NCBI GenBank assembly: GCA_045606105.1
Contig: JAZURI010000009.1
Location: forward strand, 157 to 64,156
Reading direction: 5' to 3'
Source: Spirochaetia bacterium
Lineage (GTDB): Bacteria; Spirochaetota; Spirochaetia; CADAEX01
DNA length: 64,000 nt
The position numbers were made by a program, and so were the translations under genes. Below the pieces are notes generated by a model that worked only from the letters and a program-made list of their open reading frames with translations, was not told the DNA's origin and did no database searches. Shown one piece after another: positions 8,048 through 24,441 of this stretch. How positions within the stretch are numbered: the stretch's first letter is position 1; each line of letters opens with the position of its first letter.

Positions 8048-9025
8048 ATGGAGTACAGGAATCCTGAGGTTGCCGCAAGGGTGGCCGAGGCTCACGGAAT
8101 CACTGAAAAGATTTTCGGAAACAAGGTATATATCAGAGGAATCATAGAATTCTCCAACTATTGCCGCAAGAACTGCAATTACTGCGGTATCAGACGGGAA
8201 AACCTGGATGTGAAGCGCTACAGGATGAGTGCGGACGAGATTGTGGAGGCCGCTGAAAGGAACCTGAAGCAGGGAATCAGGACCATTGTCCTGCAGTCTG
8301 GGGAGGACATGAGCTATTCCAGAGCCGATATGGTGGATATCATACAGCGCATCAAGGCAATAGATCCGGAATGTGCCATAACCCTGTCGATCGGAGAGAG
8401 ATCCCGTGAGGATTATGCAGCCTTCAAGGAGGCGGGAGCAGACCGTTTTCTCATGCGCTTCGAGACAGCGGACCGGGAGCTTTTTGCATCTCTTCATCCC
8501 GATGATGATTTTGATGTGAGACTTGAGGCACTCAGGAACCTGAAGGAGCTGGGTTACGAGACCGGCTCGGGCTTCATGATAGGGATTCCCGGAGAAAAAG
8601 AGGATGCGGACGACAGGAATATCGAGCTCCTGAAGGAAATAGGGGTTCATATGGTGGGATGCGGCCCTTTTATACCGGCAGCCGGCACCCCTATGGAGAA
8701 CGACGGAATACATGCGGATATGGAACGGTGCATGGATGTGTATGCCAAGGTAAGGCTTGCCCTGCCGGATGCAAACATTGCGGCGGCCACAGCGCTGGAT
8801 GCACTGGAGAAGGGGGCTCGGAAGATTTCCCTTTCCGTGGCAGCCAATGTAGTGATGCCCAACACCACTCCTATAAAATACAGAGATGACTATTCAATCT
8901 ACAGAAGAAAGGGAAAGCTGGACGAGAACCTGGCAGATGCCCATTATCTGGGACAGGAGCTGGAGAAGCTGGGATTTACCCCGATGTGGAACGTAAAAGG
9001 AAATTCAAGACTTAAAGGAGAATAA
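8048..9025 (+). CDS. hydE: Radical SAM protein, HydE-like ([FeFe]-hydrogenase maturase) / BioB family
   Basis: FSNYCRKNCNYCGIRREN contains the CxxxCxxC cluster motif in the context typical of HydE. Length 325 aa, with a TIM-barrel-like continuation. Confidence 0.55.
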   Translation: MEYRNPEVAARVAEAHGITEKIFGNKVYIRGIIEFSNYCRKNCNYCGIRRENLDVKRYRMSADEIVEAAERNLKQGIRTIVLQSGEDMSYSRADMVDIIQRIKAIDPECAITLSIGERSREDYAAFKEAGADRFLMRFETADRELFASLHPDDDFDVRLEALRNLKELGYETGSGFMIGIPGEKEDADDRNIELLKEIGVHMVGCGPFIPAAGTPMENDGIHADMERCMDVYAKVRLALPDANIAAATALDALEKGARKISLSVAANVVMPNTTPIKYRDDYSIYRRKGKLDENLADAHYLGQELEKLGFTPMWNVKGNSRLKGE

Positions 9026-9027
9026 CA

Positions 9028-9411
9028 ATGAGAATCGCAGTAACCTACGAAAACGGACAGATATTTCAGCATTTCGGACATACCGAAAGCTTCAAGATAT
9101 ATGATGTGGAAGAGGGCAAGGTAACAGAAAGCCGTGTCATGGGAACCGACGGACAGGGGCACGGAGCTCTGGCCTGTCTGCTGAGGGAAGCAGGAGCCGA
9201 GGTGCTTATCTGCGGAGGAATCGGCGGCGGTGCCAGAATGGCGCTGGAAGCGGCCGGAATCAGGCTTTATGGCGGGGTTTCAGGCTCCTGTGATGCTGCT
9301 GTGGAGGCGCTTCTGGCAGGTAAGCTGGAATACAATCCGGATGTAAAATGCAGCCACCACGGACACGACCACGGAGCAGGGCACAGCTGCGGCAGTCACA
9401 GGTGCGGGTGA
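9028..9411 (+). CDS. NifB/NifX-like dinitrogenase FeMo-cofactor-binding domain protein with a His-rich tail
   Basis: The 127-aa sequence MRIAVTYENGQIFQHFGHTESFKIYDV...ICGGIGGGA matches PF02579-type proteins. The C-terminus is HHGHDHGAGHSCGSHRCG. Confidence 0.7.
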   Translation: MRIAVTYENGQIFQHFGHTESFKIYDVEEGKVTESRVMGTDGQGHGALACLLREAGAEVLICGGIGGGARMALEAAGIRLYGGVSGSCDAAVEALLAGKLEYNPDVKCSHHGHDHGAGHSCGSHRCG

Positions 9412-9424
9412 GGGTTACCCGAAA

Positions 9425-9463
9425 TCCCGACTAATTTAAAGTACAACTTTAGATTAGTCGGGA
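9425..9463. terminator. Perfect 11-bp inverted repeat hairpin at the core/island junction
   Basis: TCCCGACTAAT-17 nt-ATTAGTCGGGA between two convergent genes. No clear U-tract on either side. Confidence 0.4.
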
Positions 9464-9488: not shown

Positions 9489-10127
9489 TTACCACATTAC
9501 ATTCCTTTTGTGTTGTAAAAGATCAATCGCTTCCATTAACTTTCCGTATGCAGGATGCTTGTCCGTTATTTTTTTACATAGCCCACGCATATTTAACAGC
9601 AAATAATCAAGTCTATGTGATTGATTTCCTAAGTCAACCTTGTCATAAAATTCCTTGATGCTATTGTCGCCATTTTTTGCTTGATTGATTCTTATATAGT
9701 AATTCTCATCTCTAATGAAAGCCTCGGTTATCTCTGTCTCATCGGGATGAATTTTGTGAAGATCTTCATCCGGAATTTCTAGCATACTTTTGGCTCTATT
9801 ACAACCATAACAAGACAAAACCAGATTTTCTATGTATCCTGCATTAGCTTTTTTCTTTCCAAAGCGATCAGCTTCTTTGGGGATTAAATGGTCGATTTCA
9901 AACATTTGCCACGGAATAATTTCGGTAGACACCCCGCAATAGGCACATTTACCATTATATGCTTCTACAAATTGTTGTTTAAAAGGTTTATCGTTCCTTG
10001 AGATATATGTATGCATATCTTTTGCCCTAGGATGTTTTTCGCACACTGAATCTTTTACATCGTTTTTCTTTTTTGCCAGATTTGTAAGTGTAGGACAATA
10101 TTTTGAATTTCTATAATCGTCAGCCAT
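9489..10127 (-). CDS. HNH endonuclease domain protein
   Basis: CAYCG...EIDHLIPK...NLVLSCYGCN is a zinc-finger HNH motif. 212 aa. Its start overlaps the stop of the upstream receiver-domain gene (AATGGCTGA). Confidence 0.8.
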   Translation of the reverse strand: MADDYRNSKYCPTLTNLAKKKNDVKDSVCEKHPRAKDMHTYISRNDKPFKQQFVEAYNGKCAYCGVSTEIIPWQMFEIDHLIPKEADRFGKKKANAGYIENLVLSCYGCNRAKSMLEIPDEDLHKIHPDETEITEAFIRDENYYIRINQAKNGDNSIKEFYDKVDLGNQSHRLDYLLLNMRGLCKKITDKHPAYGKLMEAIDLLQHKRNVMW

Positions 10128-10716
10128 TTAAACTCTCCTGTATTTCTTTGAAAGCTAAAATCAAACTGTCAATATCGTCTTTTGTAAGTTTATCGTATGT
10201 ATTTGTACCTTCTAGCGTTGCAATAACCTTATCCTTTAAAACGTCTTCCCACGTATCATTTTTCCTAACCAAATCAGCCAGTAGCCGATATTGTTTAATA
10301 TCAGCTACCGCTTCATTGATGATTTTAGGGAGTTTCGAAGAATAATACTCAGAAGCAGATCCAGCGAGAGATTTATCATATTTTGCTATTTTTCTGATTT
10401 CCGAATCTGTACCATTCTGTGTGATGACAATTACTTCGATGAAAGGAAGCAACTTTTTGAGTATCAGTTTAAACTCTTCGCCGGTAAATTTTACATCGGC
10501 GGCAGTGCGGTTTTCAAAAAGCCACGAGTCAATTAGAATAATATTTGCGTTGCTAACTCTTTGATCAGAAAGTAAACTTTCGTATCCGTCTTCAGGATTA
10601 AATATTATTTCCGAACAAAGAATTTCATAATTATCACTTTTAAATTCTTCATCCAAATATCTAGTTAAAGCCGTTTCAGGATTATCATCAATATATACTA
10701 AAGAATACTTCTCCAT
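10120..10716 (-). CDS. Stand-alone response-regulator receiver (REC) domain protein with a C-terminal helical extension
   Basis: SLVYIDDNPE gives the acidic pair; ANIILIDSWL the phospho-acceptor Asp; IEVIVITQNGT the Thr; a Lys follows downstream. No output domain is recognisable. Confidence 0.6.
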   Translation of the reverse strand: MEKYSLVYIDDNPETALTRYLDEEFKSDNYEILCSEIIFNPEDGYESLLSDQRVSNANIILIDSWLFENRTAADVKFTGEEFKLILKKLLPFIEVIVITQNGTDSEIRKIAKYDKSLAGSASEYYSSKLPKIINEAVADIKQYRLLADLVRKNDTWEDVLKDKVIATLEGTNTYDKLTKDDIDSLILAFKEIQESLNG

Positions 10717-12857
10717 TATTTTGATCCTCCAATGGTAAATTCGATATGAAAACCGTTATTACCATCTATTTTAGTAATTTCACCGCTAGACATTGTAACA
10801 GTATTATTTACTATCCACATGCCAAGACCGTGTCCTTTTTTGCGTGTAGTCTCATGAACTTCTAGTATCTTTTCGGGATTTTTTAAATACTTTTTATCCA
10901 ACCCTTTTCCACTATCAGCATAAGAGAACAACAGTACACTTCCAGAGAGGGTTACACCAATTGTTATATCCAAATGATTAAGGCTTTCATTTTGCTGTAT
11001 GCTGTTGAGGATTAGATTATCAAAAATCACTTGCAAATAATCTTCCGATATCATAAAGCAAAGATTATCATCCATATTGATTGTGATACTGATCCAAGCA
11101 TAGTCATTTTCCCAGTTCTTTTTAATTCGCTGAATAATATCATTAATGCTTTGCCAAGAAGGTTCAAATTGTTTCTTTTCTATTTCTGAAAGCATTGTAT
11201 TCATAAAAGCCAACAATTTCGAGCTTACTTGTTTATTTGTTTCTAAAAGATAAGGCACATTTTGATAAGACTTTTCGGTATACTCTGGTGAAGTTAGTTC
11301 ATCCCACATATCAAATTTCTTCAATGCGGCAACAATATTATCAATATTGTCAGCAACCGAATTTCTATCATTTCTCATTTCGTGTGCAATTGATGATGCT
11401 TTCAACCCAACGGTTGCTAACACATTTAGGATTCGAACATCATATTTGTATCTCGTTTCTACATCATCACGCTCACGTTGTGCTTCTGTATGCGCTTTTT
11501 GATACGCCTTGATTTCAGCCGCCAACAACATAGTTTCCTCTTTGGATAAATTAGCCACTGAACTGGGATTAGATACGATTTTTTCACTAACAGGTGCTTG
11601 CTTTTCTTCAACAGGGGCGTTCTTAACATTTATGTGACGAATAATATTTTGACGATATCTTTCAAAACCTTTTATGCCGGAAAGCACGATTTCAACAAAC
11701 AATTCATAAAAAATATTTTCGTCTAAGCCCTGTCTGTTTGAAAGATCCTGCAATACACCGTTACGCTGTTTATCAATTTCCACTTTGCCTGCCATTTGGT
11801 TTTCTCTTACACGCCAAGAACCCGTTGGGTGTGTTGCAGCAGCAGGAGATTTTCTGGAACGTTTTCCAAAACCAAGCCAGTCTTTTTTACCTTCGTAGGA
11901 AGATATACTAAAGGCATTTCGATAAAGAATAACACCCTTTAGCGCCTCACTTGGTAAAGTGTAATGTTTATATAAGAATTTTTCGACATCAGCTTTGGTA
12001 GGGCTAATTGTGAAAGAAAATTCCGCAGAAAAATCGCCTAGTTGTAGCAAATTGTTTTTGAGTTCATTTTCAGATAATTCCCATTGATCATTCGCTTTAA
12101 GTTCATCGAAAATATCAATTGTCTGAAAATAATACTTCAAATCAATGTCTTTACAATACTTTTCTGCTGCATCTAAAAACTCATCCGAAACAACCTCGGT
12201 AGTTAAAGTGTGCGTAGTGCTATCATATTTCAAGTTGATTTTTGCCAAACAATTAATGCCGGGAATCAGCTCCGTGATATATGATGTGATCTCCGTATTG
12301 ATATCTGGATGCGATACAATAATCCTCATAACATTATCGTTATAGGTTTTAGATAGGAACAAAACGAGATTTTCAATTTTCTTTTTATTCCACTTGATTC
12401 TAAGATTCTTTATAATAATTTTTGTGCCTTGTTCAGTGATAGTTTCATCAATAGCTACTGTAGAAGTATTCCAATCGGTTTCCCATACGACACCGGGGAA
12501 CCCATCTTTTTGGGAAAATACAGAAGTGGCTTCACCAAGTCTTGCTAAAGCAAAACGTCCAACACCCTTGGAACCAGCCAAAACTCTAATTTGATTGTTT
12601 TCTAAAACGGTACTATATTTTTTTGGACTCTTGCCAACATGCATCCAGTTTGTCTTAATATCATTGATATTCATTCCTGTTCCATCATCGATTACTGTAA
12701 GAATGTCATTTTCGAAGATTAACTTTACAAAAGAGGCACTTGCGTCATATGCATTTTTCACCAGTTCAAGAATTGCGGATTCGTCAGTAGAAAAGTTTTG
12801 TTTACCCAATAATTCGGAAATGGTTTTATCCTCAATTACATATTGTAGTTTTTCCAT
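10716..12857 (-). CDS. Histidine kinase with an additional N-terminal GHKL (HATPase_c_3/MORC-MutL-like) ATPase domain
   Basis: N-terminal ELVKNAYDA, IDDGTGM and GSKGVGRFA boxes. Central ASSIAHEMRNDRNS H-box. C-terminal IFDNLILNSIQQN (N-box), YADSGKGLD (G1) and KKGHGLGMWIV (G2). Confidence 0.7.
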   Translation of the reverse strand: MEKLQYVIEDKTISELLGKQNFSTDESAILELVKNAYDASASFVKLIFENDILTVIDDGTGMNINDIKTNWMHVGKSPKKYSTVLENNQIRVLAGSKGVGRFALARLGEATSVFSQKDGFPGVVWETDWNTSTVAIDETITEQGTKIIIKNLRIKWNKKKIENLVLFLSKTYNDNVMRIIVSHPDINTEITSYITELIPGINCLAKINLKYDSTTHTLTTEVVSDEFLDAAEKYCKDIDLKYYFQTIDIFDELKANDQWELSENELKNNLLQLGDFSAEFSFTISPTKADVEKFLYKHYTLPSEALKGVILYRNAFSISSYEGKKDWLGFGKRSRKSPAAATHPTGSWRVRENQMAGKVEIDKQRNGVLQDLSNRQGLDENIFYELFVEIVLSGIKGFERYRQNIIRHINVKNAPVEEKQAPVSEKIVSNPSSVANLSKEETMLLAAEIKAYQKAHTEAQRERDDVETRYKYDVRILNVLATVGLKASSIAHEMRNDRNSVADNIDNIVAALKKFDMWDELTSPEYTEKSYQNVPYLLETNKQVSSKLLAFMNTMLSEIEKKQFEPSWQSINDIIQRIKKNWENDYAWISITINMDDNLCFMISEDYLQVIFDNLILNSIQQNESLNHLDITIGVTLSGSVLLFSYADSGKGLDKKYLKNPEKILEVHETTRKKGHGLGMWIVNNTVTMSSGEITKIDGNNGFHIEFTIGGSK

Positions 12858-12858
12858 T

Positions 12859-14286
12859 TCATTGCCCTCCTATAAAAAGATAGTTATTGATATCTTTACA
12901 AGTTACTCGTAATGATTTACCGCTAATGTTTATGCCTATATTTTGGACATACCGTAAAAATTGCTCGCTTTTAAGTATTTCAACAGCATCGTTTAGATTA
13001 TAAGCAGGGTTTTTCACGGTAATATATATTCCTGAAAAAGGAATCGTATTGGCATCCACTTCATAAACTTCGACTGTATTTGTGATTATTGTAGAAATAA
13101 GAAGTTTTTCCTTATTTAAGTGTGCCAAGGCTTGTGATCTGCCGTACTCAAACCAAGTTGCTTTTTCATCACTATTTCTTGCGTCAAGTTCTTTAGAGTA
13201 CTGTCTTAAATGTTTTGCCGTATTCGGAAAAAGCTCTTCGAAGGTTTCTTCGGAGTATCGGCACAGTCCCTTATCATCATAGAAATAAGGGAAAATTATT
13301 TTTTTCTTTTTCTTATATCTTAGAGTATTGGGACTCACTGCATCCCTCAAGATATTTTGTTCCAAGTTCTCTTCACCAATGCACGCATCATCCACTATAA
13401 ATGCCTTATTATAAAGGGTTGCGATAGTTATTGAGGCGTGAAAAATATCGCCAAACCTAAGCATTTTCTGAGTGTTGTTGTTAGGAATTGAAAACATCCA
13501 TTTGTCACCAAGAGAGTGACGACAAAGACTTCTTTTTGTGCCTTCAGTAACGTTTTCATAGTGTATGTTTTCATTTGAGTTTTCTTTGTCGTATAAAAAT
13601 ATGCTTACTGATGTCAAGGTTTTATCGAATAATTTTTGATCCGGATAATCTAGCACAGTAGCAATATGGTCTACAAGAAGTTCCCTTAATTTTTTCGCAA
13701 AAACATTCTTATAAATGTTATTGGGAATTAATTGAACAAGTTTTCCAGTTTCTTTCAGGTGTTTAATGCCCGATTCAATGAAAGCATAACAGTAGTCAAA
13801 TTTTCCGATTGCACACGACTCAAATTTCTTTTTAAGTGATATCCTACTGTCTTCGTCCATTTCTTTATAAGAAATGTAAGGAGGGTTACCAATAATATAA
13901 TCGAAAGAAATGTTAAGGTTTATAGACAATGCGTTATCATTGAAAAGCTTCCAGTCTACAGAAGGAATGTTATAGGATTCGAGTATGGCATTTAATTCTA
14001 AAATACAGTTATCGTAAAGAGTTTTATCCAATTCAATCCCATATACATCTTGAGCTAATCCTGCTGAAATAGATACTAAATCAACACCTGCTGCGATAGC
14101 GCTTTCTATATATCTAACAACAATTGCTTTTAGAATGTTACCTGAACCAAATGAGTTCTCTAATATAGTTTTTCCCATAAGGTCTGTGTTATAATTCACA
14201 AGATTCAACATTGTATCTACCAACGCTGAAGGTGTGAATTTTTGGCACTTGGTTTTATTTTTGCCGATTTCTAATATAGAACTCAT
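12859..14286 (-). CDS. N6-adenine DNA methyltransferase (type II, gamma-class)
   Basis: FTP...ENSFGSGNIL (SAM-binding motif I) and IIGNPPY (motif IV). 475 aa. Confidence 0.8.
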   Translation of the reverse strand: MSSILEIGKNKTKCQKFTPSALVDTMLNLVNYNTDLMGKTILENSFGSGNILKAIVVRYIESAIAAGVDLVSISAGLAQDVYGIELDKTLYDNCILELNAILESYNIPSVDWKLFNDNALSINLNISFDYIIGNPPYISYKEMDEDSRISLKKKFESCAIGKFDYCYAFIESGIKHLKETGKLVQLIPNNIYKNVFAKKLRELLVDHIATVLDYPDQKLFDKTLTSVSIFLYDKENSNENIHYENVTEGTKRSLCRHSLGDKWMFSIPNNNTQKMLRFGDIFHASITIATLYNKAFIVDDACIGEENLEQNILRDAVSPNTLRYKKKKKIIFPYFYDDKGLCRYSEETFEELFPNTAKHLRQYSKELDARNSDEKATWFEYGRSQALAHLNKEKLLISTIITNTVEVYEVDANTIPFSGIYITVKNPAYNLNDAVEILKSEQFLRYVQNIGINISGKSLRVTCKDINNYLFIGGQ

Positions 14287-15593: not shown

Positions 15594-16514
15594 TTATACC
15601 AAATGTTTCGGGACATCTGATGCAGAACTCATAATTTTTTCTTTTTCTGCATTGCGAATTCTGTCCGCCATTTTCTGAATTTTACTTGTTATCCACATAT
15701 GAGCGGTAGTTCCTTCAGAATAGTCTGCTTCTGCATACATATCTACACGACCGTCTGCTCGCATTTGCTCCACTTGTTGCATGGCATCTTTGTCACCTTT
15801 GGGATATATTGCAAAAGTAGCTCCACCATTTTGCTTAACCACGGAAAAAGCAGGAATATCACTGGGACCGTCTGCAATATAAATCATATTTTTAAAATGA
15901 ACTCGTCTATATTCTTCAGGTATTTTAGAATTAACTTCGATTCCATCAAGTTTTTCGATGCCTTTATTGATTTCAAATAAAGCTCGAGTTTTTGTAGTGT
16001 TATCAATTGTATATAGAATCTCGCTTATAATTAGATTTCCATTTTCGTCTGGAGCGTCCAGCAACTCACACCCCCAGATGCCATCTACGTATGGCTTTAA
16101 AACAGAACCACGGATAATCTCAGCAAAACCAGTACTTACAATGTAATGTTCTACTTGAATTCCATATTCTGAGTAGCTTTTATCATCTTTGAACATATTT
16201 TTTGTTTGCTCAAAAATTTCAGGAATACCTTTATAGAATTTTTGTTTTGCCCCATACTCATGGAGTTTTTTATTATTCAAACCAGAAAGCGTCCCGTCAT
16301 GAGCACATTTTATAAAATGATTAAGATAGTATGTATCCTTATTTACACGAATTCCTTTTGCTTTATACTCGGATGGAATTAAATCAACTTGTTTCCAAAA
16401 ATCTCCGGATTTAATATTATATTCTTCAAAAATCGGGTCTTGCATATAACCATCAATTAGAGTTTTGTCACAATCCCAAATTACAGCAATAATGTTTGCC
16501 ATATTTTTCCTCAC
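15594..16514 (-). CDS. HAD-superfamily hydrolase-like protein
   Basis: IAVIWDCDKTL supplies motif I (DxDxT) and MIYIADGPSDIP is motif IV-like (DGxxD). 306 aa, embedded between hsdS and the type II pair. Confidence 0.55.
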   Translation of the reverse strand: MRKNMANIIAVIWDCDKTLIDGYMQDPIFEEYNIKSGDFWKQVDLIPSEYKAKGIRVNKDTYYLNHFIKCAHDGTLSGLNNKKLHEYGAKQKFYKGIPEIFEQTKNMFKDDKSYSEYGIQVEHYIVSTGFAEIIRGSVLKPYVDGIWGCELLDAPDENGNLIISEILYTIDNTTKTRALFEINKGIEKLDGIEVNSKIPEEYRRVHFKNMIYIADGPSDIPAFSVVKQNGGATFAIYPKGDKDAMQQVEQMRADGRVDMYAEADYSEGTTAHMWITSKIQKMADRIRNAEKEKIMSSASDVPKHLV

Positions 16515-16518
16515 TTTC

Positions 16519-17913
16519 TTATTTCAATTTTTCACACAGTGGCAAGATTTCTTCCAGTTTGGCAACGATACGATTTTGCTCTGAAACTGGCGGTACGGGA
16601 ACGACTGCTCTATAAAGGCGATCATCATTTATCGCAGGATAGGCTACGCCTTTAGCATTCTCCGTATCATTGGCGTAGTTATCAAAAGAGGGTGATAACA
16701 AGTAATAGAATAAGTATTTATTATTAACACCCTTAAAACAAGTCATTGCAGCAAAGCCCGTACTTGCAATTGGCTCCAAACTGAATTCACGGTCAATGAT
16801 ACACATATTGTGGAGATACGGTCTAACTGTAGAATAAAGAATATCGCCCATTTGAACAATTTTCCTTGCTCGGGAAGGCGCTTTGTTTGCCTCTGTAATA
16901 TTGTCCTCGGGGTTTAGCCTTTGTCGCTTATTATCAATAGAACCTATATCTATATAACAAAATGTCTTGTTCGGTATTTTCTGTCCACGATTGTATACAA
17001 GATCTTGTAACCTTGCCCAAATCCATGTTTCAGGGATATCAAAGGGAACTTCATCTTCGTCAATTGTAGGGTATGATTTTCCTTTTTTTACTTTGCCAGC
17101 TTTTATCATGGCTTGTCTTTTTGTCTGGATCTCCCAGAACAAATCTTCTCCATTACCTTCTTCTGGGAGTTGGGGAACCAGTTTACCCTGAATGGCCATT
17201 TGGAGAATGGATTTCTGCATATCCGCAGGGAACCGTTTGTTGAAGTCCTCCAGCTTGCTCCACGCCTGATCATAGCGGTCGATCAGTGGCAACAATTCCT
17301 CAATTTTTGCCACAATGCGCTTCTGCTCGGCAAGCGGAGCAACAGGAATGGAGATTTCCTTTAGTTTCTTTATACTTACACCACCGATAATTCCAGTCAT
17401 ATTCCCTGAAAATAGCTCTTTGAACAACCAGCTCTGCAGATAGTAATATAGGTACCTATTATCAATGCCCTGAGCGTGAAAACAGCAGAGCTTATTGCCA
17501 AAGCAGACATCCCTATCAAGTATTCCAATCTTACGTCCTGCACTTCCGCCTTCAATACACATCAATACAGCATCTTTATGCGCCACCTTAAATCCTTCGT
17601 TATATGGGATTCTGACGCCATTGTCATAACAGATTTCTTGATTAAAGGTTACATCTTTTGTGGCGATGTAATCATATCCTGTTTCCAGTCCAGCATATTT
17701 TGCTGATTTGACTGTTTCGGCAATGCTATTTCCGGTATACATTTCGCAACATAAGCCTAAAGTTGACCAAACCCAAGTTTCAGGAACATCAAACGGTATT
17801 TCCGACAATTCGATTGTCTTAACTCCTCCAAAATCTTTGGTTTCAACATGTTCACAAAGTTTACCAGTGAATGCGTTACCTAAAATGCTATATTTAAACT
17901 CCTGCGGTGTCAT
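16519..17913 (-). CDS. hsdS: Type I restriction-modification specificity subunit HsdS (two target-recognition domains)
   Basis: Duplicated conserved spacers LAEQKRIVAKIEELLPLIDRY and VSEQNRIVAKLEEILPLCEKL. The stop overlaps the hsdM start. Confidence 0.85.
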   Translation of the reverse strand: MTPQEFKYSILGNAFTGKLCEHVETKDFGGVKTIELSEIPFDVPETWVWSTLGLCCEMYTGNSIAETVKSAKYAGLETGYDYIATKDVTFNQEICYDNGVRIPYNEGFKVAHKDAVLMCIEGGSAGRKIGILDRDVCFGNKLCCFHAQGIDNRYLYYYLQSWLFKELFSGNMTGIIGGVSIKKLKEISIPVAPLAEQKRIVAKIEELLPLIDRYDQAWSKLEDFNKRFPADMQKSILQMAIQGKLVPQLPEEGNGEDLFWEIQTKRQAMIKAGKVKKGKSYPTIDEDEVPFDIPETWIWARLQDLVYNRGQKIPNKTFCYIDIGSIDNKRQRLNPEDNITEANKAPSRARKIVQMGDILYSTVRPYLHNMCIIDREFSLEPIASTGFAAMTCFKGVNNKYLFYYLLSPSFDNYANDTENAKGVAYPAINDDRLYRAVVPVPPVSEQNRIVAKLEEILPLCEKLK

Positions 17914-19430
17914 CTCTGACCACCTCCGAGAATAACGGTGATATCAGCCAATACCCGGTCGATTTCAGCATTTAGAGAGGCACGCTCCTCCTGATAACGC
18001 TGTATTAAATCCATAGGATCAAGAATTTCTTCCTCAATGTGAGGATAGCCGCACTGATCAAGGTTGTAACCCAGTTCTTCGGTGAGTTGTTGTACCGTAA
18101 ACTTCTTAGCCTTGTCAAAACCATCTACTGTGATTTCCTGACGGTTGTTCCACCATTCTACAACAGGTGCAAAATGTTCCAACTTCATAGGCTTGGTCTT
18201 TGAGAAATGCTTATAACCTTCAGGCATATCCATGCGATAAAACCAAGTTTCTTCTGTAGGTTTGGTACGATCAAAGAATAGAATGTTGGTAGTAATCGAG
18301 GTGTAGGGCGCAAAAACACTACCCGGCATACGGATGATGGTATGCAGGTTGAATTCGGACAACAGTTTCTTTTTAATGTTCACCTTGGCGTTATCGGTAC
18401 CGAACAGGAAACCGTCGGGTAGGATAACTGCCACACGACCATTTTTCTTTAATCGGTACATAATTACGGACATAAAGAGGTCAGCGGTTTCGGAGCTTGC
18501 AAGGTCTGCGGGAAAATGATTCTTTACATCCGCCTTTTCGCTACCGCCGTAGGGAGGATTCATAAGGATAATGTCAAACTGATCGTCCACAGTGTAGTCC
18601 AGCACGTCCTTCAACAGTGTGTTGTCGTGGAATACACGAGGAATATCCAGCCCATGCAGCAAAAGGTTGGTGATACAAAGCATATAGGGGAATTGCTTTT
18701 TCTCAATACCGTAAATAGAATTTCCATATTTCTCTGCATCGGCTGTACTGCGTACTTGCTTCTGCAGTTCTTTGAGCCAGCTTGTGATAAAGCCACCGGT
18801 ACCGCATGCGAAGTCCGCCATTGTTTCACCGATCTTTGGTTGAATCATTTGTGCCATAAAGTCAGTTACAGCACGAGGGGTATAGAATTCACCCGCCGAA
18901 CCTGCGCTCTGCAATTCTTTCAAAATAGATTCATAGATCTCACCGAATGCATGGCTTTCCTCATAGTCGGAAAGGTCAAGTTCGTCAATAACGTTGATGA
19001 CCTGACGAAGAAGAACACCGTCTTTCATATACTGATTTGCATCGGCAAAGGTTGTTTGAACAATAGCTTTTTTAATAGGGGTTGATGCATCTACTTTTAC
19101 ACCACCTATCAAAACATTGCCGTTAGAGTCTTTGATATCGTTACCCTTAAGCACAGGAAAAAGAGTGTTATTCACAAAATCAAGCAATCTATCACCGGTC
19201 ATAGCTGAACCGGATTTATCATCAACTGCCCAATTCGCCCAGCGGCATTCTTCAGGAATGATCGATGTATAGCTATCATCATCGAATTCCCAGTCCTGCT
19301 CTTTGGCATCATATACTTTCAAAAAGAGCATCCATGCGATCTGCTCAATACGCTGTGCATCACCATTGATACCTGCGTCATTGCGCATAATGTCACGAAT
19401 TCTTTTTACAAATCCTGATAGATTGCTCAT
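17910..19430 (-). CDS. hsdM: Type I restriction-modification DNA methyltransferase HsdM
   Basis: N6-adenine methyltransferase motifs including ILMNPPYGG, plus an HsdM N-terminal domain. 506 aa. Confidence 0.9.
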   Translation of the reverse strand: MSNLSGFVKRIRDIMRNDAGINGDAQRIEQIAWMLFLKVYDAKEQDWEFDDDSYTSIIPEECRWANWAVDDKSGSAMTGDRLLDFVNNTLFPVLKGNDIKDSNGNVLIGGVKVDASTPIKKAIVQTTFADANQYMKDGVLLRQVINVIDELDLSDYEESHAFGEIYESILKELQSAGSAGEFYTPRAVTDFMAQMIQPKIGETMADFACGTGGFITSWLKELQKQVRSTADAEKYGNSIYGIEKKQFPYMLCITNLLLHGLDIPRVFHDNTLLKDVLDYTVDDQFDIILMNPPYGGSEKADVKNHFPADLASSETADLFMSVIMYRLKKNGRVAVILPDGFLFGTDNAKVNIKKKLLSEFNLHTIIRMPGSVFAPYTSITTNILFFDRTKPTEETWFYRMDMPEGYKHFSKTKPMKLEHFAPVVEWWNNRQEITVDGFDKAKKFTVQQLTEELGYNLDQCGYPHIEEEILDPMDLIQRYQEERASLNAEIDRVLADITVILGGGQR

Positions 19431-19435
19431 ATAAT

Positions 19436-21811
19436 TTAACCTGCCTTATATAATTCTGTTTCAAGTTCTCTGATTGCCGCCAGATAACCCGCCTTGCCAC
19501 CAAAATATGTAGCAATTTTGGAAGGTTTACCGAACTTATTGAAAGGGTCAAGCTGAAGAATTTCGGTCTTTTCAATTTCATAAATACCGGTATTCATATA
19601 CTTGTCAAGCAACGCTTCCAGCACTTCTCTTGCCACGCCGCTATATTTGCTTAAGAAATCACGTTTCTTAACGTTGTTTGCACGTTCACGGCGGGTGAGA
19701 GGCTTCTGGTCATAGGCAACGTGACAAATAAAGTCAAAGTCGTCCACATCGGTCATTCCTTGATCTGCTTTCATTTGCTCAAGGTCGATGCCTTGTTCTT
19801 TCAGCAGTTCTCGAATGACCTCCTTCTTTTCTTCAGACGTCCATTTAAGAATGAAGTTGTCAAGGGATGCAAATTTGCCGAGAATATTGGACTTTGTATA
19901 GTCTACAATACTTTCTTGACGGAGGAGTTTGCCATCCACATCATAAACTTCAACACGTTTGCCGATAATGTGAACATCGCAGCCGTTTTCATCTACGATA
20001 TATTTATCAACTGTTGGAGGAGTAACGGGATCATTACCATTACCGGGTTTCGGAGGTCTTGGCGTCGGTTTATGTTCGGGATCGTAACCGTCTACCATTT
20101 CAATAGGTCCATCCCAATCAGGATCAGAGAACAGTCTTGTTACATTGCGGAAGTCCATAACAACAAAATGACTCTTGCCTTCTTTCTCACGAAGACGGGT
20201 ACCACGACCGATAATCTGCTTGAACTCGGTCATAGAACTGATCATTTCATCAAGAACAATCAGTTTTGTCATTTTACAATCTGCACCGGTGGAAAGTAGT
20301 TTTGAAGTTGTGGCAATAACTGGATATGGTGCAGAAACAGAAATAAAGTAATCAAGTTTACTTTTGCCGTAAGTATCGGAACCCGTAATACGCACAACGT
20401 AATCCGGATTTTCTTTGACCATATCGGCGTTAAGATTATTAAGAGCAATACGCATACGCTCGGCATGATCTTCGGTAGCGCAGAACACAATAGTTTTCTG
20501 CTTTCTGTCAGTACTCTTTAAGTATTCGGTTATTTCTTTGGCAACTTCATAGGTTCGATCTTCTAAAATGATGTTGTAATCAAAATCGCTATTGGTATAG
20601 ATGCGATCTTCGATTTCATTACCAAACTTATCAAGCTGACCTTTACAAGGGCGCCATCCATCCGAAATGTCAGTTTTGATGTTAATAACTTTAAATGGCG
20701 CAAGAAAGCCGTCTTTAATTCCTTCACGCAAACTGTAGGTATATACAGGCTCGCCGAAGTAATCGATGTTGGAAATATACTTGGTTTCCTTCGGTGTTGC
20801 GGTCATACCGATTTGAGTAGCAGAAGAAAAATAGTCAAGGATTTTTCTCCAGTTACTGTCTTTTTTTGCTGAACCTCTGTGGCACTCGTCAACGATAATA
20901 AGATCGAAGAAGTCCTTATTAAAGAGTTTTGCAAATCGTGCAACCGCTTCTTCTCCGTTTCCTTCATCTTCATTTTCCTCATTACCTGCAAGCTGTTGGT
21001 ACAGGGAGAAATAAACTTCGTGAGAAGTGATGGTAACAGGATCGTCTTTGGCAAAGTTGATTTTATGAATTGTTTTTTCAAGCGGAGAAAAGTCCTGCTG
21101 AATAGATTGATCCACGAGAATATTACGGTCGGCTAAATATAACACTTTTCTCTTCACTCCGCTTTTCAGTAAGCGATAAACAATTTGGAAAGCGGTATAG
21201 GTTTTACCGGTACCCGTAGCCATAACCAATAAAAGACGTTCTTGCCCCTTGGCAATAGCTTCTACAGTACGGTTAATAGCGTTGCGCTGATAATATCTGG
21301 GGTCATAGGTATTCTGACTAGAGTAATACGGCTGTCCGATTACTTTCTTTTCATCAGCAGAAAGTCCTTCGCCACCGTTGGATTCGGTTTCCCAACGCTT
21401 AGTGAGTTCATCGACAGTAGGAAATTCATCCATAGACAAGGTGCGTTCCATACCGGTTAAAAGGTCGTGTTCTTGAAAACCATCACCGTTGGAACTATAC
21501 GCAAAAGGAATGTCCTGCATCTTGGCATAGGTGATTGCTTGTTGAAGGCCATAAGAAACAGAATGATTGTTATCCTTGGCTTCAACAATTGCAATAGGTT
21601 TATTATTTGTCAAGTACAATACATAGTCCGTCTTCTTGGGTTTTTCGCGAGTTACAATATTACCTTTAAGATTGATTCTACCATCAGTAATCTTAGTTTC
21701 CATTGTAATACGATCGAGTCCCCATTTTGCTTGGATTGCAGGGGTTATATATTGTAACTTTATGTCTTCTTCAGACATTTCTTTTTTTGAAAAAACAGTA
21801 GCCGATTTCAT
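19436..21811 (-). CDS. hsdR: Type I restriction enzyme R subunit HsdR
   Basis: N-terminal PD-(D/E)xK motif IAIVEAKD. SF2 helicase motifs MATGTGKT and DECHR. 791 aa. Confidence 0.9.
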   Translation of the reverse strand: MKSATVFSKKEMSEEDIKLQYITPAIQAKWGLDRITMETKITDGRINLKGNIVTREKPKKTDYVLYLTNNKPIAIVEAKDNNHSVSYGLQQAITYAKMQDIPFAYSSNGDGFQEHDLLTGMERTLSMDEFPTVDELTKRWETESNGGEGLSADEKKVIGQPYYSSQNTYDPRYYQRNAINRTVEAIAKGQERLLLVMATGTGKTYTAFQIVYRLLKSGVKRKVLYLADRNILVDQSIQQDFSPLEKTIHKINFAKDDPVTITSHEVYFSLYQQLAGNEENEDEGNGEEAVARFAKLFNKDFFDLIIVDECHRGSAKKDSNWRKILDYFSSATQIGMTATPKETKYISNIDYFGEPVYTYSLREGIKDGFLAPFKVINIKTDISDGWRPCKGQLDKFGNEIEDRIYTNSDFDYNIILEDRTYEVAKEITEYLKSTDRKQKTIVFCATEDHAERMRIALNNLNADMVKENPDYVVRITGSDTYGKSKLDYFISVSAPYPVIATTSKLLSTGADCKMTKLIVLDEMISSMTEFKQIIGRGTRLREKEGKSHFVVMDFRNVTRLFSDPDWDGPIEMVDGYDPEHKPTPRPPKPGNGNDPVTPPTVDKYIVDENGCDVHIIGKRVEVYDVDGKLLRQESIVDYTKSNILGKFASLDNFILKWTSEEKKEVIRELLKEQGIDLEQMKADQGMTDVDDFDFICHVAYDQKPLTRRERANNVKKRDFLSKYSGVAREVLEALLDKYMNTGIYEIEKTEILQLDPFNKFGKPSKIATYFGGKAGYLAAIRELETELYKAG

Positions 21812-21923: not shown

Positions 21924-23261
21924 ATGGACGATTTATTCTATTTGCGTTTTAGGAACTGTAATGGTATACTTAATAAAAGTATGTGTTCTGGAACTATAAA
22001 AATAAAGATAAGAAATTTTGGTCCGGTGAAAGGTGGGCTGACTGAAAATGACGGTTTTATGGATATCTTCCCGGTTACGGTATTCTGCGGAGAGCAGGCT
22101 ACAGGAAAAAGTACAGTAGCCAAGATATATTCCATAATGTCCTGGATCGAGAAGACACTTGTCAAAAACGATATCAAGGATAGCTTTTCCGAGAAACAGG
22201 ATATTGTTACAGTAAATTATAATTTTTTTCTTGATTGCTGCCATTGGCAGAAGATTCATGAGTATTTTTCCCCGGATACATTGATTCAATACGAGGGAAC
22301 TGCTTACCGTATTAAATATGAAAACAAAGATTTTTTTTATGAAAGGGCAGAGACTTATTCTAATTATATCAGACCTAAAATAATGTATGTCCCTGCGGAG
22401 CGAAATCTTCTTGCAGCTCTGGAAGAGGCTGAAAAAATGAAGTATCTTCCAGAAATTCTCTCTTACTTGTTTGATGAATACAGTTTGGCTAGAAAGAAAA
22501 TTGATGTCTGTAGGTTGCCTGTTTCCGATATTATGCTTGTGAATGACAAGGTAAGAAACATTCTTCGTGTTGTCGTTGACAAAAATAGGTCAATTCCTAT
22601 ATGGAATGCATCAAGCGGCATTCAGTCTGTAGCTCCGTTATCTCTTGTAACAAGGCATATTTCCTATGAAATCTTTTCAAAGAAGGAAGGAAAAAATTTT
22701 CGCAATCTATCACTGAATGAAAGAGAACAGTTGAAACAGAAATTTTATGAAGAAATGAATATATGTGTTCCGGAGGAATTAAAAGCTTCCTGGGAAGAAT
22801 TCTCCCATCGTATGTTTCAAAGGTGGTATAGTGACATAAGGAATCTCTTCAACGAATGTTTCATTAATATTGTGGAGGAGCCAGAACAGAACCTTTATCC
22901 TGAATCTCAGGGAAAAGTTCTTTATGAACTGCTTGAATTCATGAATCTGAACCAAAATAACAAGCTAGTCATCACAACCCATAGTCCGTATATACTATCT
23001 TGTTTGACTTTGTGTGCAAAGGCATATGAACTTTTGAAAAAAGGGGTGTCTGATGACAAGATAGACAGGATTATTCCTTCTGTCGCAGCTGTTCCTGGAA
23101 ATAAAATTGCAATATACGAAAATGGTGAAGACGGGGTTCTAAAACGCCTGCAGCATTTTGATAATCTTCCATCAGACAATAACCTTTTAAACAATGCTCT
23201 TAATGAAACAAATGAAATCTTTGCTAGTCTGATAGAGCTGGAAGAAGATAATGGCAGATAG
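21924..23261 (+). CDS. AAA15/ABC-type (OLD-like) ATPase
   Basis: GEQATGKST (Walker A), IVEEPEQNLYPE (Walker B/D-loop) and ITTHSP (H-loop). 445 aa. Divergent from hsdR. Confidence 0.7.
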   Translation: MDDLFYLRFRNCNGILNKSMCSGTIKIKIRNFGPVKGGLTENDGFMDIFPVTVFCGEQATGKSTVAKIYSIMSWIEKTLVKNDIKDSFSEKQDIVTVNYNFFLDCCHWQKIHEYFSPDTLIQYEGTAYRIKYENKDFFYERAETYSNYIRPKIMYVPAERNLLAALEEAEKMKYLPEILSYLFDEYSLARKKIDVCRLPVSDIMLVNDKVRNILRVVVDKNRSIPIWNASSGIQSVAPLSLVTRHISYEIFSKKEGKNFRNLSLNEREQLKQKFYEEMNICVPEELKASWEEFSHRMFQRWYSDIRNLFNECFINIVEEPEQNLYPESQGKVLYELLEFMNLNQNNKLVITTHSPYILSCLTLCAKAYELLKKGVSDDKIDRIIPSVAAVPGNKIAIYENGEDGVLKRLQHFDNLPSDNNLLNNALNETNEIFASLIELEEDNGR

Positions 23262-23733
23262 AATTGATTTTTTCAGATATTGTGAAATTTCCGTTTGTTC
23301 AAAAAATCGTTTCGGTCTCTGTGATCCCCGGACACAGACTCCGGCCTATATTGATTTCTACAATTTCGATAGCTGGATTGCAGTTGTGGAAAACGATCTT
23401 GAAAAAGAAATTGGATTTCTTGCTGTTGACCATAATGTTCCTTTTCCCGTGGATAAGAAAAGATGTGATGCCCTCCTTTTTGATAAAGAGATGCTGTTGT
23501 TCGTGGAACTAAAAAAACAGAGAGGAAGCTGGCTTCCTGAAGCTTTAGTTCAGCTGACGGATACAGTGGAGTTCTTTAAGGAGAATCATGATGTGTCAGT
23601 ATATAAAAACCGTAAGGCTTATGCTTGCAATAAGTGTCATCCCAACTTTAATTTCAGTTATAAGGAGTATATGCAGGATTTTCGAAAACGACACGGATTT
23701 ATTTTGAGAATCAGCACAGAAATAAAAATCTGA
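23251..23733 (+). CDS. Small protein with a PD-(D/E)xK-like motif, partner of the AAA15 ATPase
   Basis: Start overlaps the ATPase stop. VDHN...CDALLFDKEMLLFVELKK gives D...ExK spacing typical of restriction-fold nucleases. 160 aa. Confidence 0.4.
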   Translation: MADRIDFFRYCEISVCSKNRFGLCDPRTQTPAYIDFYNFDSWIAVVENDLEKEIGFLAVDHNVPFPVDKKRCDALLFDKEMLLFVELKKQRGSWLPEALVQLTDTVEFFKENHDVSVYKNRKAYACNKCHPNFNFSYKEYMQDFRKRHGFILRISTEIKI

Positions 23734-23736
23734 TTC

Positions 23737-24351
23737 TTACAGCTCGTCTGCCTTGTAGGTTGTATAGCCTTCGTAAAAATAGCTGTGATCTATTCCTTTC
23801 ATGTAGATTTCCCTGTTGTGGATATCCGGAGTCAGGGCCGCTTTAAGAATATGCTTTATTTCGGTATCCCGGATGGGGCTTCGTTCCATGGCCAACAGAT
23901 AATCTTCCTTGTCTACCTTGCTCCAGTCAACGACTTTTCCTATTTCTTTTTTCAGGATACAGTCAAGCCAGATTCGTGTACTTCTGCCGTTTCCCTCTCT
24001 GAACGGATGTGCCACATTCATTTCCACATATTTTTCTATGATTTCATCAAAATCAGACTGGGGCATTTTTTCAATGTTTTCAATAGCTGCTTCAAGGTAC
24101 ATTACCGGTGCAAATCTGAAATTTCCCTTGGCAATGTTTACTGACCTGAGCTTGCCTGCAAAATCATAGATTTCTTCGAAAAGATATTTGTGAATGGCTT
24201 TGAGAGATGAAAATTTTCCGGCATCAAGTTTATTAAGCATGCCTGTTTCAAACAATTCTACAGCCTTTTTCTTACTGATGCGCTCTTCTTCTCTTGCAAG
24301 CTCTGCCGGCTCCGTAATTCCCAATCTGTTTTCAAGTATCATAGTTTTCAT
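23737..24351 (-). CDS. fic: Fic/Doc family protein (AMPylase-type)
   Basis: HPFREGNGRSTR is the Fic motif HxFx(D/E)GNGRxxR. Start placed at MKTMILENRL; the ORF track's start at 24393 adds 14 unlikely residues. Confidence 0.8.
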   Translation of the reverse strand: MKTMILENRLGITEPAELAREEERISKKKAVELFETGMLNKLDAGKFSSLKAIHKYLFEEIYDFAGKLRSVNIAKGNFRFAPVMYLEAAIENIEKMPQSDFDEIIEKYVEMNVAHPFREGNGRSTRIWLDCILKKEIGKVVDWSKVDKEDYLLAMERSPIRDTEIKHILKAALTPDIHNREIYMKGIDHSYFYEGYTTYKADEL

Positions 24352-24441
24352 ATTGTAACACAGAAACGGGAAGTTGAAAATGAGAAAAAGCAAATCTGAA
24401 ATTTTCTTTCAATCTCCCGGCTAAATTTGAAATAAACCCAT

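Follow-up and report, generated by a model that had tools for sequence, protein, structure and literature searches.

Two groups of bacterial proteins, two-component-like pairs (PMC8011034) and paraMORC GHKL proteins (PMC2292703), are statistically linked to restriction-modification (R-M) systems. Bellieny-Rabelo, Pretorius and Moleleki (2021; PMC8011034) described the former, by computational prediction only, as elements of R-M loci in which a soluble kinase with HATPase_c_3, HEF_HK (PF19191) and HATPase_c domains lies beside a Response_reg_2 (PF19192) protein. Most of their set is proteobacterial, with methylases of the C5-cytosine type and, in many cases, a Vsr gene; in the authors' speculation, the pair controls R-M systems and descends from paraMORC ATPases. 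The paraMORC and prokaryotic MORC GHKL ATPases of R-M systems were described by Iyer, Abhiman and Aravind (2008; PMC2292703); paraMORC1 has a C-terminal extension beyond its S5 domain and co-occurs with HNH endonucleases. In the Detocs defence system (Rousset et al. 2023), a kinase with a TPR sensor (DtcA) works with a stand-alone buffer receiver (DtcB) and a receiver-effector (DtcC), the effector being a purine nucleoside phosphorylase (PNP) in about 80% of cases and otherwise a nuclease or a transmembrane domain; mutation of the His and of the Asp abolishes defence. In the GHKL-Shedu protein VcSduA, the residues of the ATPase and of the nuclease are both needed for defence. Here we describe a locus comparable to these systems, in which genes for an N6-adenine DNA methyltransferase, a GHKL-histidine kinase, a receiver protein and an HNH nuclease follow one another. 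It lies in a contig of a Spirochaetia bacterium (GenBank assembly GCA_045606105.1, contig JAZURI010000009.1); the window, that is, the whole stretch of DNA that was analysed, comprises 64,000 nucleotides (nt), positions 157 to 64,156 of the forward strand.

We read this locus as a four-gene, R-M-like defence cassette whose nuclease is switched by a His-Asp phosphorelay, and we assign this reading a probability of about 55%. In the mechanism that we propose, the Eco57I-type methyltransferase would mark host DNA with N6-methyladenine, whereas the restriction arm would be split over three proteins joined by phosphotransfer. The N-terminal ATPase of the kinase, with its conserved basic loop, would engage DNA and report unmodified or foreign DNA, leading to autophosphorylation of H492, from which the phosphoryl group would move to D63 of the receiver. 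The acidic, helical C-terminal domain of the phosphorylated receiver would then bind and license the PtuB-type HNH nuclease, and DNA would be cut. The labile Asp-phosphate and the H-E-x-x-N phosphatase motif of the kinase could together serve as an off-switch that limits self-damage. The cassette is a variant of a design so far predicted computationally only, and phosphorylation-gated restriction is a proposed mechanism.

A preliminary description of this DNA reported three back-to-back genes, for the kinase, the receiver and the nuclease, with overlapping or abutting stop and start codons. The three open reading frames (ORFs) do lie on the minus strand at the positions that it gave (Table 1), and the junctions are as described: the kinase stop and the receiver start share the sequence TAATG, and 8 nt (ATGGCTGA) belong to both the receiver and the HNH gene. 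That description ended the module at 12857 and so missed the methyltransferase gene, whose TGA stop codon is separated by a gap of 1 nt from the kinase ATG. A GGAGG-like ribosome-binding site precedes each start, and all four genes are translationally coupled. Because the methyltransferase belongs to the unit, the upstream boundary is at 14286, and the cassette consists of four minus-strand genes spanning about 4.8 kb (9489-14286); the presence of this enzyme makes it an R-M-like system and not a free-standing two-component defence system. That the genes are real, and not chance ORFs, follows from the full-length homologues (E = 0) and from a representative search with the kinase, in which clusters formed at 50% identity numbered 243 at E <= 1e-30 (and 1712 at E <= 1e-10). 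No match listed exceeds about 870 amino acids (aa), so that none of them joins the kinase to the receiver or the nuclease.

To examine the neighbourhood in other genomes, we collected loci by a pattern scan using one genome per species, called their ORFs and searched these with the window proteins. This yielded 65 loci, 56 of which were informative, having enough DNA downstream of the kinase gene. The three genes co-occur elsewhere, the receiver and HNH genes lying immediately 3' of the kinase gene in 54 of the 56 informative loci; the two exceptions are a degraded locus and an in-frame fusion of receiver and HNH. An adenine methyltransferase adjoins in 52/56. The loci represent several phyla; the hosts are mainly Bacillota, and include also Rodentibacter, Succinivibrio, the spirochaete Brucepastera and an Acholeplasmataceae metagenome-assembled genome (MAG). 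The flanking genes are unrelated and vary by genome. A methyltransferase of the window's type is upstream in most loci and is on the opposite strand in one locus, and a second type (Eco57I domain plus M_Eco57I_C) is upstream in two loci and downstream of the HNH gene in eight. Searches of a phage collection gave only partial matches, to the N-terminal GHKL domain, and plasmid searches by tblastn with the HNH and receiver proteins yielded no useful information.

The fusion is found in a Lachnospiraceae MAG (L053:5214-6278), where receiver and HNH form one in-frame ORF of 354 aa; missing from it are about 20 aa at the end of the receiver and about 40 aa at the start of HNH. Rather than a working fusion, this may be a gene copy in decay, because the kinase gene at that locus is frameshifted.

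The kinase protein is a soluble hybrid of a MutL/Hsp90/MORC-type GHKL ATPase, a transducer-like middle region and a class-I histidine-kinase core. Pfam matched HATPase_c_3 at aa 26-130 (E 4.5e-15) and HATPase_c at aa 605-697, and both HATPase domains were recovered in 17/17 family kinases; fold comparison matched MutL, Hsp90 and MORC, and confirmed the DHp-CA fold. The N-terminal ATPase carries the motifs E31/N35, D57xGxG61, G95xxGxG100 and G144-T145; the DHp hairpin carries the H-box S-I-A-H492-E493-M-R-N496 (H492 codon at 11382-11384), and the CA domain carries N614/N618 in its N-box, D648xGxG in G1 and G675xGxG in G2. According to the discussion section of a bioRxiv paper, such a His-acidic pair is needed for kinase activity and the Asn at +4 is linked to phosphatase activity. 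The NCBIfam model NF050001 matched the window kinase at aa 17-255 (E 1e-16), and PADLOC REase_II models match its N-terminus only. Pfam searches found no TPR repeat in the kinase, and the HisKA model was never matched in the kinases searched. The kinase had been described as lacking a canonical sensor domain, a statement that we correct here, since the N-terminal GHKL module is present and could act as a sensor. A weak Pfam match to DUF6794 appeared in 5/17 family kinases (best E 1.2e-4).

Across the family, the best conserved stretch of the kinase is aa 301-400 (window 11658-11957), with 64-94% identity as compared with 35-85% elsewhere. It contains the basic loop KRSRKSPAAATHPTGSWRVRENQ (aa 325-355, pI 11.6) and is also the part modelled worst by AlphaFold2, with a predicted local distance difference test (pLDDT) score of 25-47; the mean for the kinase model is 64.5, and confidence is low at aa 283-380 and 459-503. 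Such low values at aa 301-400 would be in keeping with disorder that resolves only when the segment binds DNA or a partner protein. We propose that aa 1-400 constitute a DNA-sensing, clamping module.

The 198-aa protein encoded next has a (beta-alpha)5 receiver-like fold and the DD/D/T/K residues, with no other known domain. It gave nothing meaningful in Pfam, NCBIfam or, by phmmer, the sequences of the PDB, nor did Pfam on 22 diverse members at E <= 10, and an hhalign comparison of the family profile with Escherichia coli CheY aligned only beta-1. We assign it as a receiver on the basis of its predicted fold, its conserved residue set and a transitive link through a Campylobacter plasmid protein (see below). 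The D63 codon lies at 10528-10530. Beyond the receiver domain, three helices (aa 121-152, 158-168 and 179-197) form a C-terminal domain with a pI of 4.7 and a net charge of -4, in which G170, D181 and D183 are kept in 56/59 aligned sequences. Being acidic, this output domain is unlikely to make the protein a DNA-binding transcription factor, and we propose that it is the output surface that contacts the HNH nuclease.

The last protein is predicted to be a zinc-ribbon beta-beta-alpha-Me nuclease, closest to the PtuB and retron-type HNH models (Pfam HNH, E 2e-8; PADLOC PtuB, E 1.8e-12; NCBIfam TIGR02646, retron-type HNH). Its core (aa 56-120, window 9768-9962) contains the zinc ligands C61/C64/C106/C109, the catalytic D79-H80 pair and N110, the H80 codon being at 9888-9890. 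It consists of 212 aa with an HNH core only, and no receiver domain was detected, in agreement with the preliminary description. The methyltransferase matches Pfam Eco57I (E 4e-21) and N6_Mtase (E 3.5e-15) and PADLOC MTase_II (E 1e-45); it has FGSGN and GNPPY motifs in an Eco57I-type catalytic domain, followed by its own C-terminal target-recognition region, and is probably active, as judged from the catalytic motifs. The locus thus holds both partners expected of an R-M system, a methyltransferase with catalytic motifs and a linked nuclease with an invariant HNH site.

We evaluated conservation in an alignment of 57-59 sequences that included the remote plasmid ones described below and reached down to about 25% identity. 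Both ATP sites of the kinase are invariant, including E31, N35, DxGxG, GxxGxG and GT of the N-terminal GHKL domain and, in 59/59 sequences, the CA motifs. H492 is present in 59/59 and E493 in 57/59; in the receiver, D10, D/E11 and D63 occur in 59/59, T/S99 in 58/59 and K112 in 56/59; and the four Cys, the DH and the N residues of the HNH site in 57/57. The classical two-component set (H-box His, N, G1 and G2 boxes, acidic pocket with T and K) is therefore conserved in full, with the folds confirmed, and the three catalytic positions singled out at the outset, the His of AHEMRN (H492), the receiver Asp (D63) and the His of EIDHL (H80), are invariant across the family. This is the pattern to be expected if ATP use, phosphotransfer and cleavage are under selection. 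The receiver fold and the conserved residues stand as observed; transfer from H492 to D63 is what we infer from them.

Related cassettes on plasmids extend the comparison. Those of Deinococcus gobiensis and Bacteroides finegoldii have an identical four-gene order at about 25% kinase identity, and one from Ensifer adhaerens encodes a kinase, a 229-aa ORF undetected by the receiver profile, an HNH protein and a methyltransferase. On the Hymenobacter volaticus plasmid NZ_CP095070.1 (L075:3571-8705), an N6-methylase, a kinase (687 aa) and a 227-aa protein are accompanied by a metallo-beta-lactamase (MBL)-fold hydrolase that replaces the HNH protein and resembles defence-associated effectors (PADLOC RTasMBL and LmuA models). 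Additionally, 40 Campylobacter plasmid records combine a dcm gene with genes for a related kinase and for a 340-aa protein that contains a receiver; on the conjugative Campylobacter jejuni plasmid NZ_CP044170.1 (L074:5959-10424) these are a kinase of 736 aa, the 340-aa protein and a convergent dcm. This kinase matches 75% of the query with 27% identity, and the 340-aa protein, which consists of a Pfam Response_reg domain (E 2e-5) and a C-terminal domain of about 220 aa without assignment, is linked to our receiver profile by hhalign (E 2e-5). The nuclease and methyltransferase slots are thus interchangeable.

The cassette lies in an AT-rich island with R-M genes, as previously proposed. Gene GC content is 0.34-0.43 in the island and 0.45-0.57 in its flanks, and 34-35% in the four cassette genes as compared with 51-57% in the housekeeping genes just below (8048-9411). 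The low-GC island extends up to about the 24.4-kb position and includes a type I R-M system and several candidates identified by a PADLOC run (Table 1). We found neither an integrase gene in it nor direct repeats of at least 16 nt at its borders. The 335-aa ORF next to the methyltransferase gene had no match in Pfam, NCBIfam, PADLOC or PDB sequences, and is missing from all 65 related loci, so we consider it a separate, uncharacterised island gene outside the unit. Its sequence includes PD...EVELQ, possibly a degenerate form of the PD-(D/E)xK nuclease motif. At the other end, a hairpin with a 10-bp stem (CCCGACTAAT ... ATTAGTCGGG) lies 27 nt past the HNH stop codon, between convergent genes, and could possibly mark the end of the transcription unit; a consensus terminator scan did not call it, and consensus promoter and terminator scans performed no better than on shuffled sequence.

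Table 1. Positions, in the window, of the cassette genes, their domains and the surrounding features
Feature	Position	Strand	Remarks
N6-adenine DNA methyltransferase gene, gamma class	12859-14286	-	475 aa
GHKL-kinase gene	10716-12857	-	713 aa
N-terminal GHKL ATPase and transducer-like middle region, aa 1-400	11658-12857	-	
DHp helical hairpin, aa ~439-563	11169-11543	-	
CA domain, aa 567-713, then stop codon	10716-11159	-	HATPase_c E 8e-14; PDB matches YycG, ZraS
Receiver gene	10120-10716	-	198 aa
REC domain, aa 1-118	10363-10716	-	D10-D11 acidic pair, D63 phospho-acceptor, T99, K112
Acidic three-helix C-terminal domain, aa 119-198, then stop codon	10120-10362	-	
HNH nuclease gene, PtuB type	9489-10127	-	212 aa
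Hairpin, 10-bp stem	9426-9462	-	Read directly from sequence
ORF of 335 aa	14312-15319	-	25 nt upstream of methyltransferase
PDC-S34, HAD-like protein	15594-16514		PADLOC E 1e-61
Type I R-M system hsdS/hsdM/hsdR	16519-21811		
PDC-M29 A and B	21924-23733		PADLOC E 9e-120 and 3e-49
Fic protein matching PDC-S04	23737-24393		PADLOC E 5e-103

Some of these observations would also suit a conventional type II R-M pair, in which the HNH protein is a sequence-specific enzyme and the kinase and receiver are an accessory regulator of restriction timing, active for instance while the system becomes established in a new host or when nucleotide pools change, rather than a sensor of foreign DNA. Some type II restriction enzymes are small HNH proteins, as is KpnI, cited in PMC13092281; a helix-turn-helix (HTH) gene is found upstream of the cassette in other genomes, as in R-M systems controlled by C proteins; and direct or indirect control of R-M, possibly with sensing of nucleoside triphosphate levels, was what Bellieny-Rabelo et al. 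proposed (PMC8011034). We nevertheless hold this explanation to be rather unlikely. The HNH gene stays with the kinase and receiver genes when the methyltransferase changes in family or position: the triads of L013 and L014 have kinases 79% identical and adjoin methyltransferases of different types, yet show no extra divergence, and a comparison of L013, L014 and L015 revealed no triad segment that co-varies with methyltransferase type, as would be expected of a specificity module. The HNH protein itself matches PtuB and retron models, with no type II restriction-enzyme model among its best 25 PADLOC matches, and an MBL-fold hydrolase can take its place. The receiver has no DNA-binding output domain, and the N-terminal half of the kinase belongs to DNA-handling GHKL families. 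The same tolerance of methyltransferase swaps, together with a locus that has none adjacent, would be compatible with an abortive-infection or toxin system, in which a phage cue acts through the kinase, the receiver releases the HNH protein on host tRNA or on the chromosome, and the methyltransferase is secondary, protecting the chromosome or forming an addiction module. Detocs shows that a His-Asp relay can drive abortive infection, and retron-Eco7 PtuAB, with an HNH protein of the same kind, is reported in a passage of PMC12673091 to degrade host tRNA-Tyr. This explanation has a still smaller share of our confidence, because an adenine methyltransferase adjacent in nearly all loci, and translationally coupled here, is a hallmark of discrimination by DNA modification, and because the cassette has no ABC ATPase partner of the PtuA type; the nearest AAA_15 protein (21924-23261) is PDC-M29A, with its own partner gene.

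The preliminary description had drawn a comparison with Detocs, and a kinase, a stand-alone receiver and an effector encoded in a row within a defence island do bear a superficial likeness to it; moreover, a minority of Detocs systems have endonuclease effectors, according to their authors. We do not support a Detocs variant and regard it as very improbable: the kinase begins with a GHKL ATPase and not with TPR repeats, there is one receiver protein instead of two, so it cannot act as a phosphate buffer for a second receiver, the 212-aa effector has no room for a fused receiver domain, and a methyltransferase is part of the unit. Least credible of all is an ordinary housekeeping two-component system that lies beside an HNH gene by chance. 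Weak, partial NCBIfam matches to AtoS, ZraS and PhoR cover the CA and DHp regions only and are far below curated cut-offs, and they are set against a soluble kinase without the usual kinds of sensor, a receiver without a DNA-binding output, and genes that move as a cassette, methyltransferase and nuclease included, and that are met on plasmids, in defence islands and on mobile or low-GC DNA, their flanks changing from one genome to the next.

Several points weigh against a relay-switched R-M cassette, the reading that we prefer. No Pfam model matches the DHp region in 17 kinases or the receiver in its 22 diverse members. Two loci depart from the expected company, one having no adjacent methyltransferase (L054, 11526-12437) and the other a type I HsdM instead, the HNH gene being followed by hsdM and a 404-aa ORF (L047, 11435-14250). 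Because the L013 and L014 triads lack compensating divergence, the reading does not explain how the restriction arm would be matched to the specificity of the methyltransferase; the arm may read methylation generically, both methyltransferase types may share a target, or methylation may not be read at all. Since a PtuB-type HNH protein is reported to act on tRNA in the passage of PMC12673091 mentioned above, the substrate need not be DNA. DNA binding or reading of methylation by the GHKL module is a suggestion, and the model is of low confidence in the region conserved best (aa 283-380). More generally, we infer phosphotransfer, methylation, DNA cleavage and phage defence for every member of the family from sequence and predicted structure.

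The preliminary description had also raised the prospect of an unreported system. This holds in part: the general design had been described computationally in PMC8011034, but the Pfam models of that work do not match our proteins, and we found no experimental work on such a system in the full-text literature searched. PF19191 (HEF_HK) had no match in 17 family kinases (E <= 1) or 10 remote ones (E <= 0.01), the presence of this model in our copy of the library being unconfirmed, and PF19192 (Response_reg_2) had none in 22 diverse receivers (E <= 10). Neither in the window nor in the remote cassettes does PADLOC 2.0 have a model that covers kinase or receiver; with no kinase-receiver model there, and no Pfam model for the receiver or the DHp region, annotation with PADLOC 2.0 or Pfam leaves the cassette unidentified.

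More tentatively, and at somewhat less than even odds, the family may represent a class of restriction in which detection and cleavage reside in separate proteins joined by a diffusible, self-extinguishing phosphoryl signal (His492 to Asp63 to HNH), with plug-in slots for nuclease and methyltransferase, in at least six phyla. To our knowledge, known restriction enzymes couple recognition and cleavage in one protein or in one stable complex. Passing the signal through a labile Asp-phosphate would give restriction a new kind of control logic, with room for amplification, timing and an off-switch against self-damage. If this is correct, the cassette would be the second case, after Detocs, of a His-Asp relay as the core of immune signalling, and the first tied to epigenetic discrimination between self and non-self. 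It would also give a concrete biochemical output to bacterial paraMORC ATPases, relatives of eukaryotic MORC whose role in R-M has been unclear since 2008. The cassette is compact and widespread, occurring on conjugative plasmids and in gut and rumen Bacillota.

Among described systems, the elements of PMC8011034 come closest to the cassette and share with it a three-part soluble kinase, with the conserved His followed by an acidic residue (H492 and E493), and a small neighbouring protein with the residue set of a receiver but without any further known domain. In both, the linkage to a DNA methyltransferase is tight and nucleases, including HNH types, are nearby, and the dcm-linked Campylobacter plasmid cassette connects the two at the sequence level. 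They differ in that our family is mostly from Bacillota and has an N6-adenine methylase, a fixed PtuB-type HNH nuclease and a rigid four-gene order, whereas that work did not define a nuclease as part of the unit, nor propose that one is gated. The paraMORC proteins, of which paraMORC1 comes closest, resemble the N-terminal half of the kinase, a GHKL ATPase with intact ATP motifs and a transducer-like region, and also have methylases and an HNH nuclease as neighbours; however, PMC2292703 describes neither a histidine-kinase core nor a receiver, the comparison with paraMORC1 being by description only.

With Detocs, the cassette has in common a His-to-Asp phosphorelay as a direct step of defence signalling instead of transcription, here proposed from conserved residues. 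Unlike the cassette, Detocs has a TPR sensor, two receivers, one of them fused to the effector, an effector that is usually a PNP acting as an ATP nucleosidase, no methyltransferase, and abortive infection as its outcome. The PtuAB proteins of Septu and retron-Eco7 offer the parallel of a PtuB-type HNH nuclease controlled by a separate ATPase partner, although in the cassette this partner is a GHKL-histidine kinase with a receiver rather than an ABC/SMC-type PtuA, and a methyltransferase is present. Finally, type II enzymes of the BbrUII/HgiDII family and VcSduA likewise begin with a GHKL ATPase, which is presumed to control a nuclease. There, ATPase and nuclease belong to one polypeptide, whereas in the cassette the nuclease is a protein of its own, with a kinase core and a receiver protein standing between it and the ATPase.

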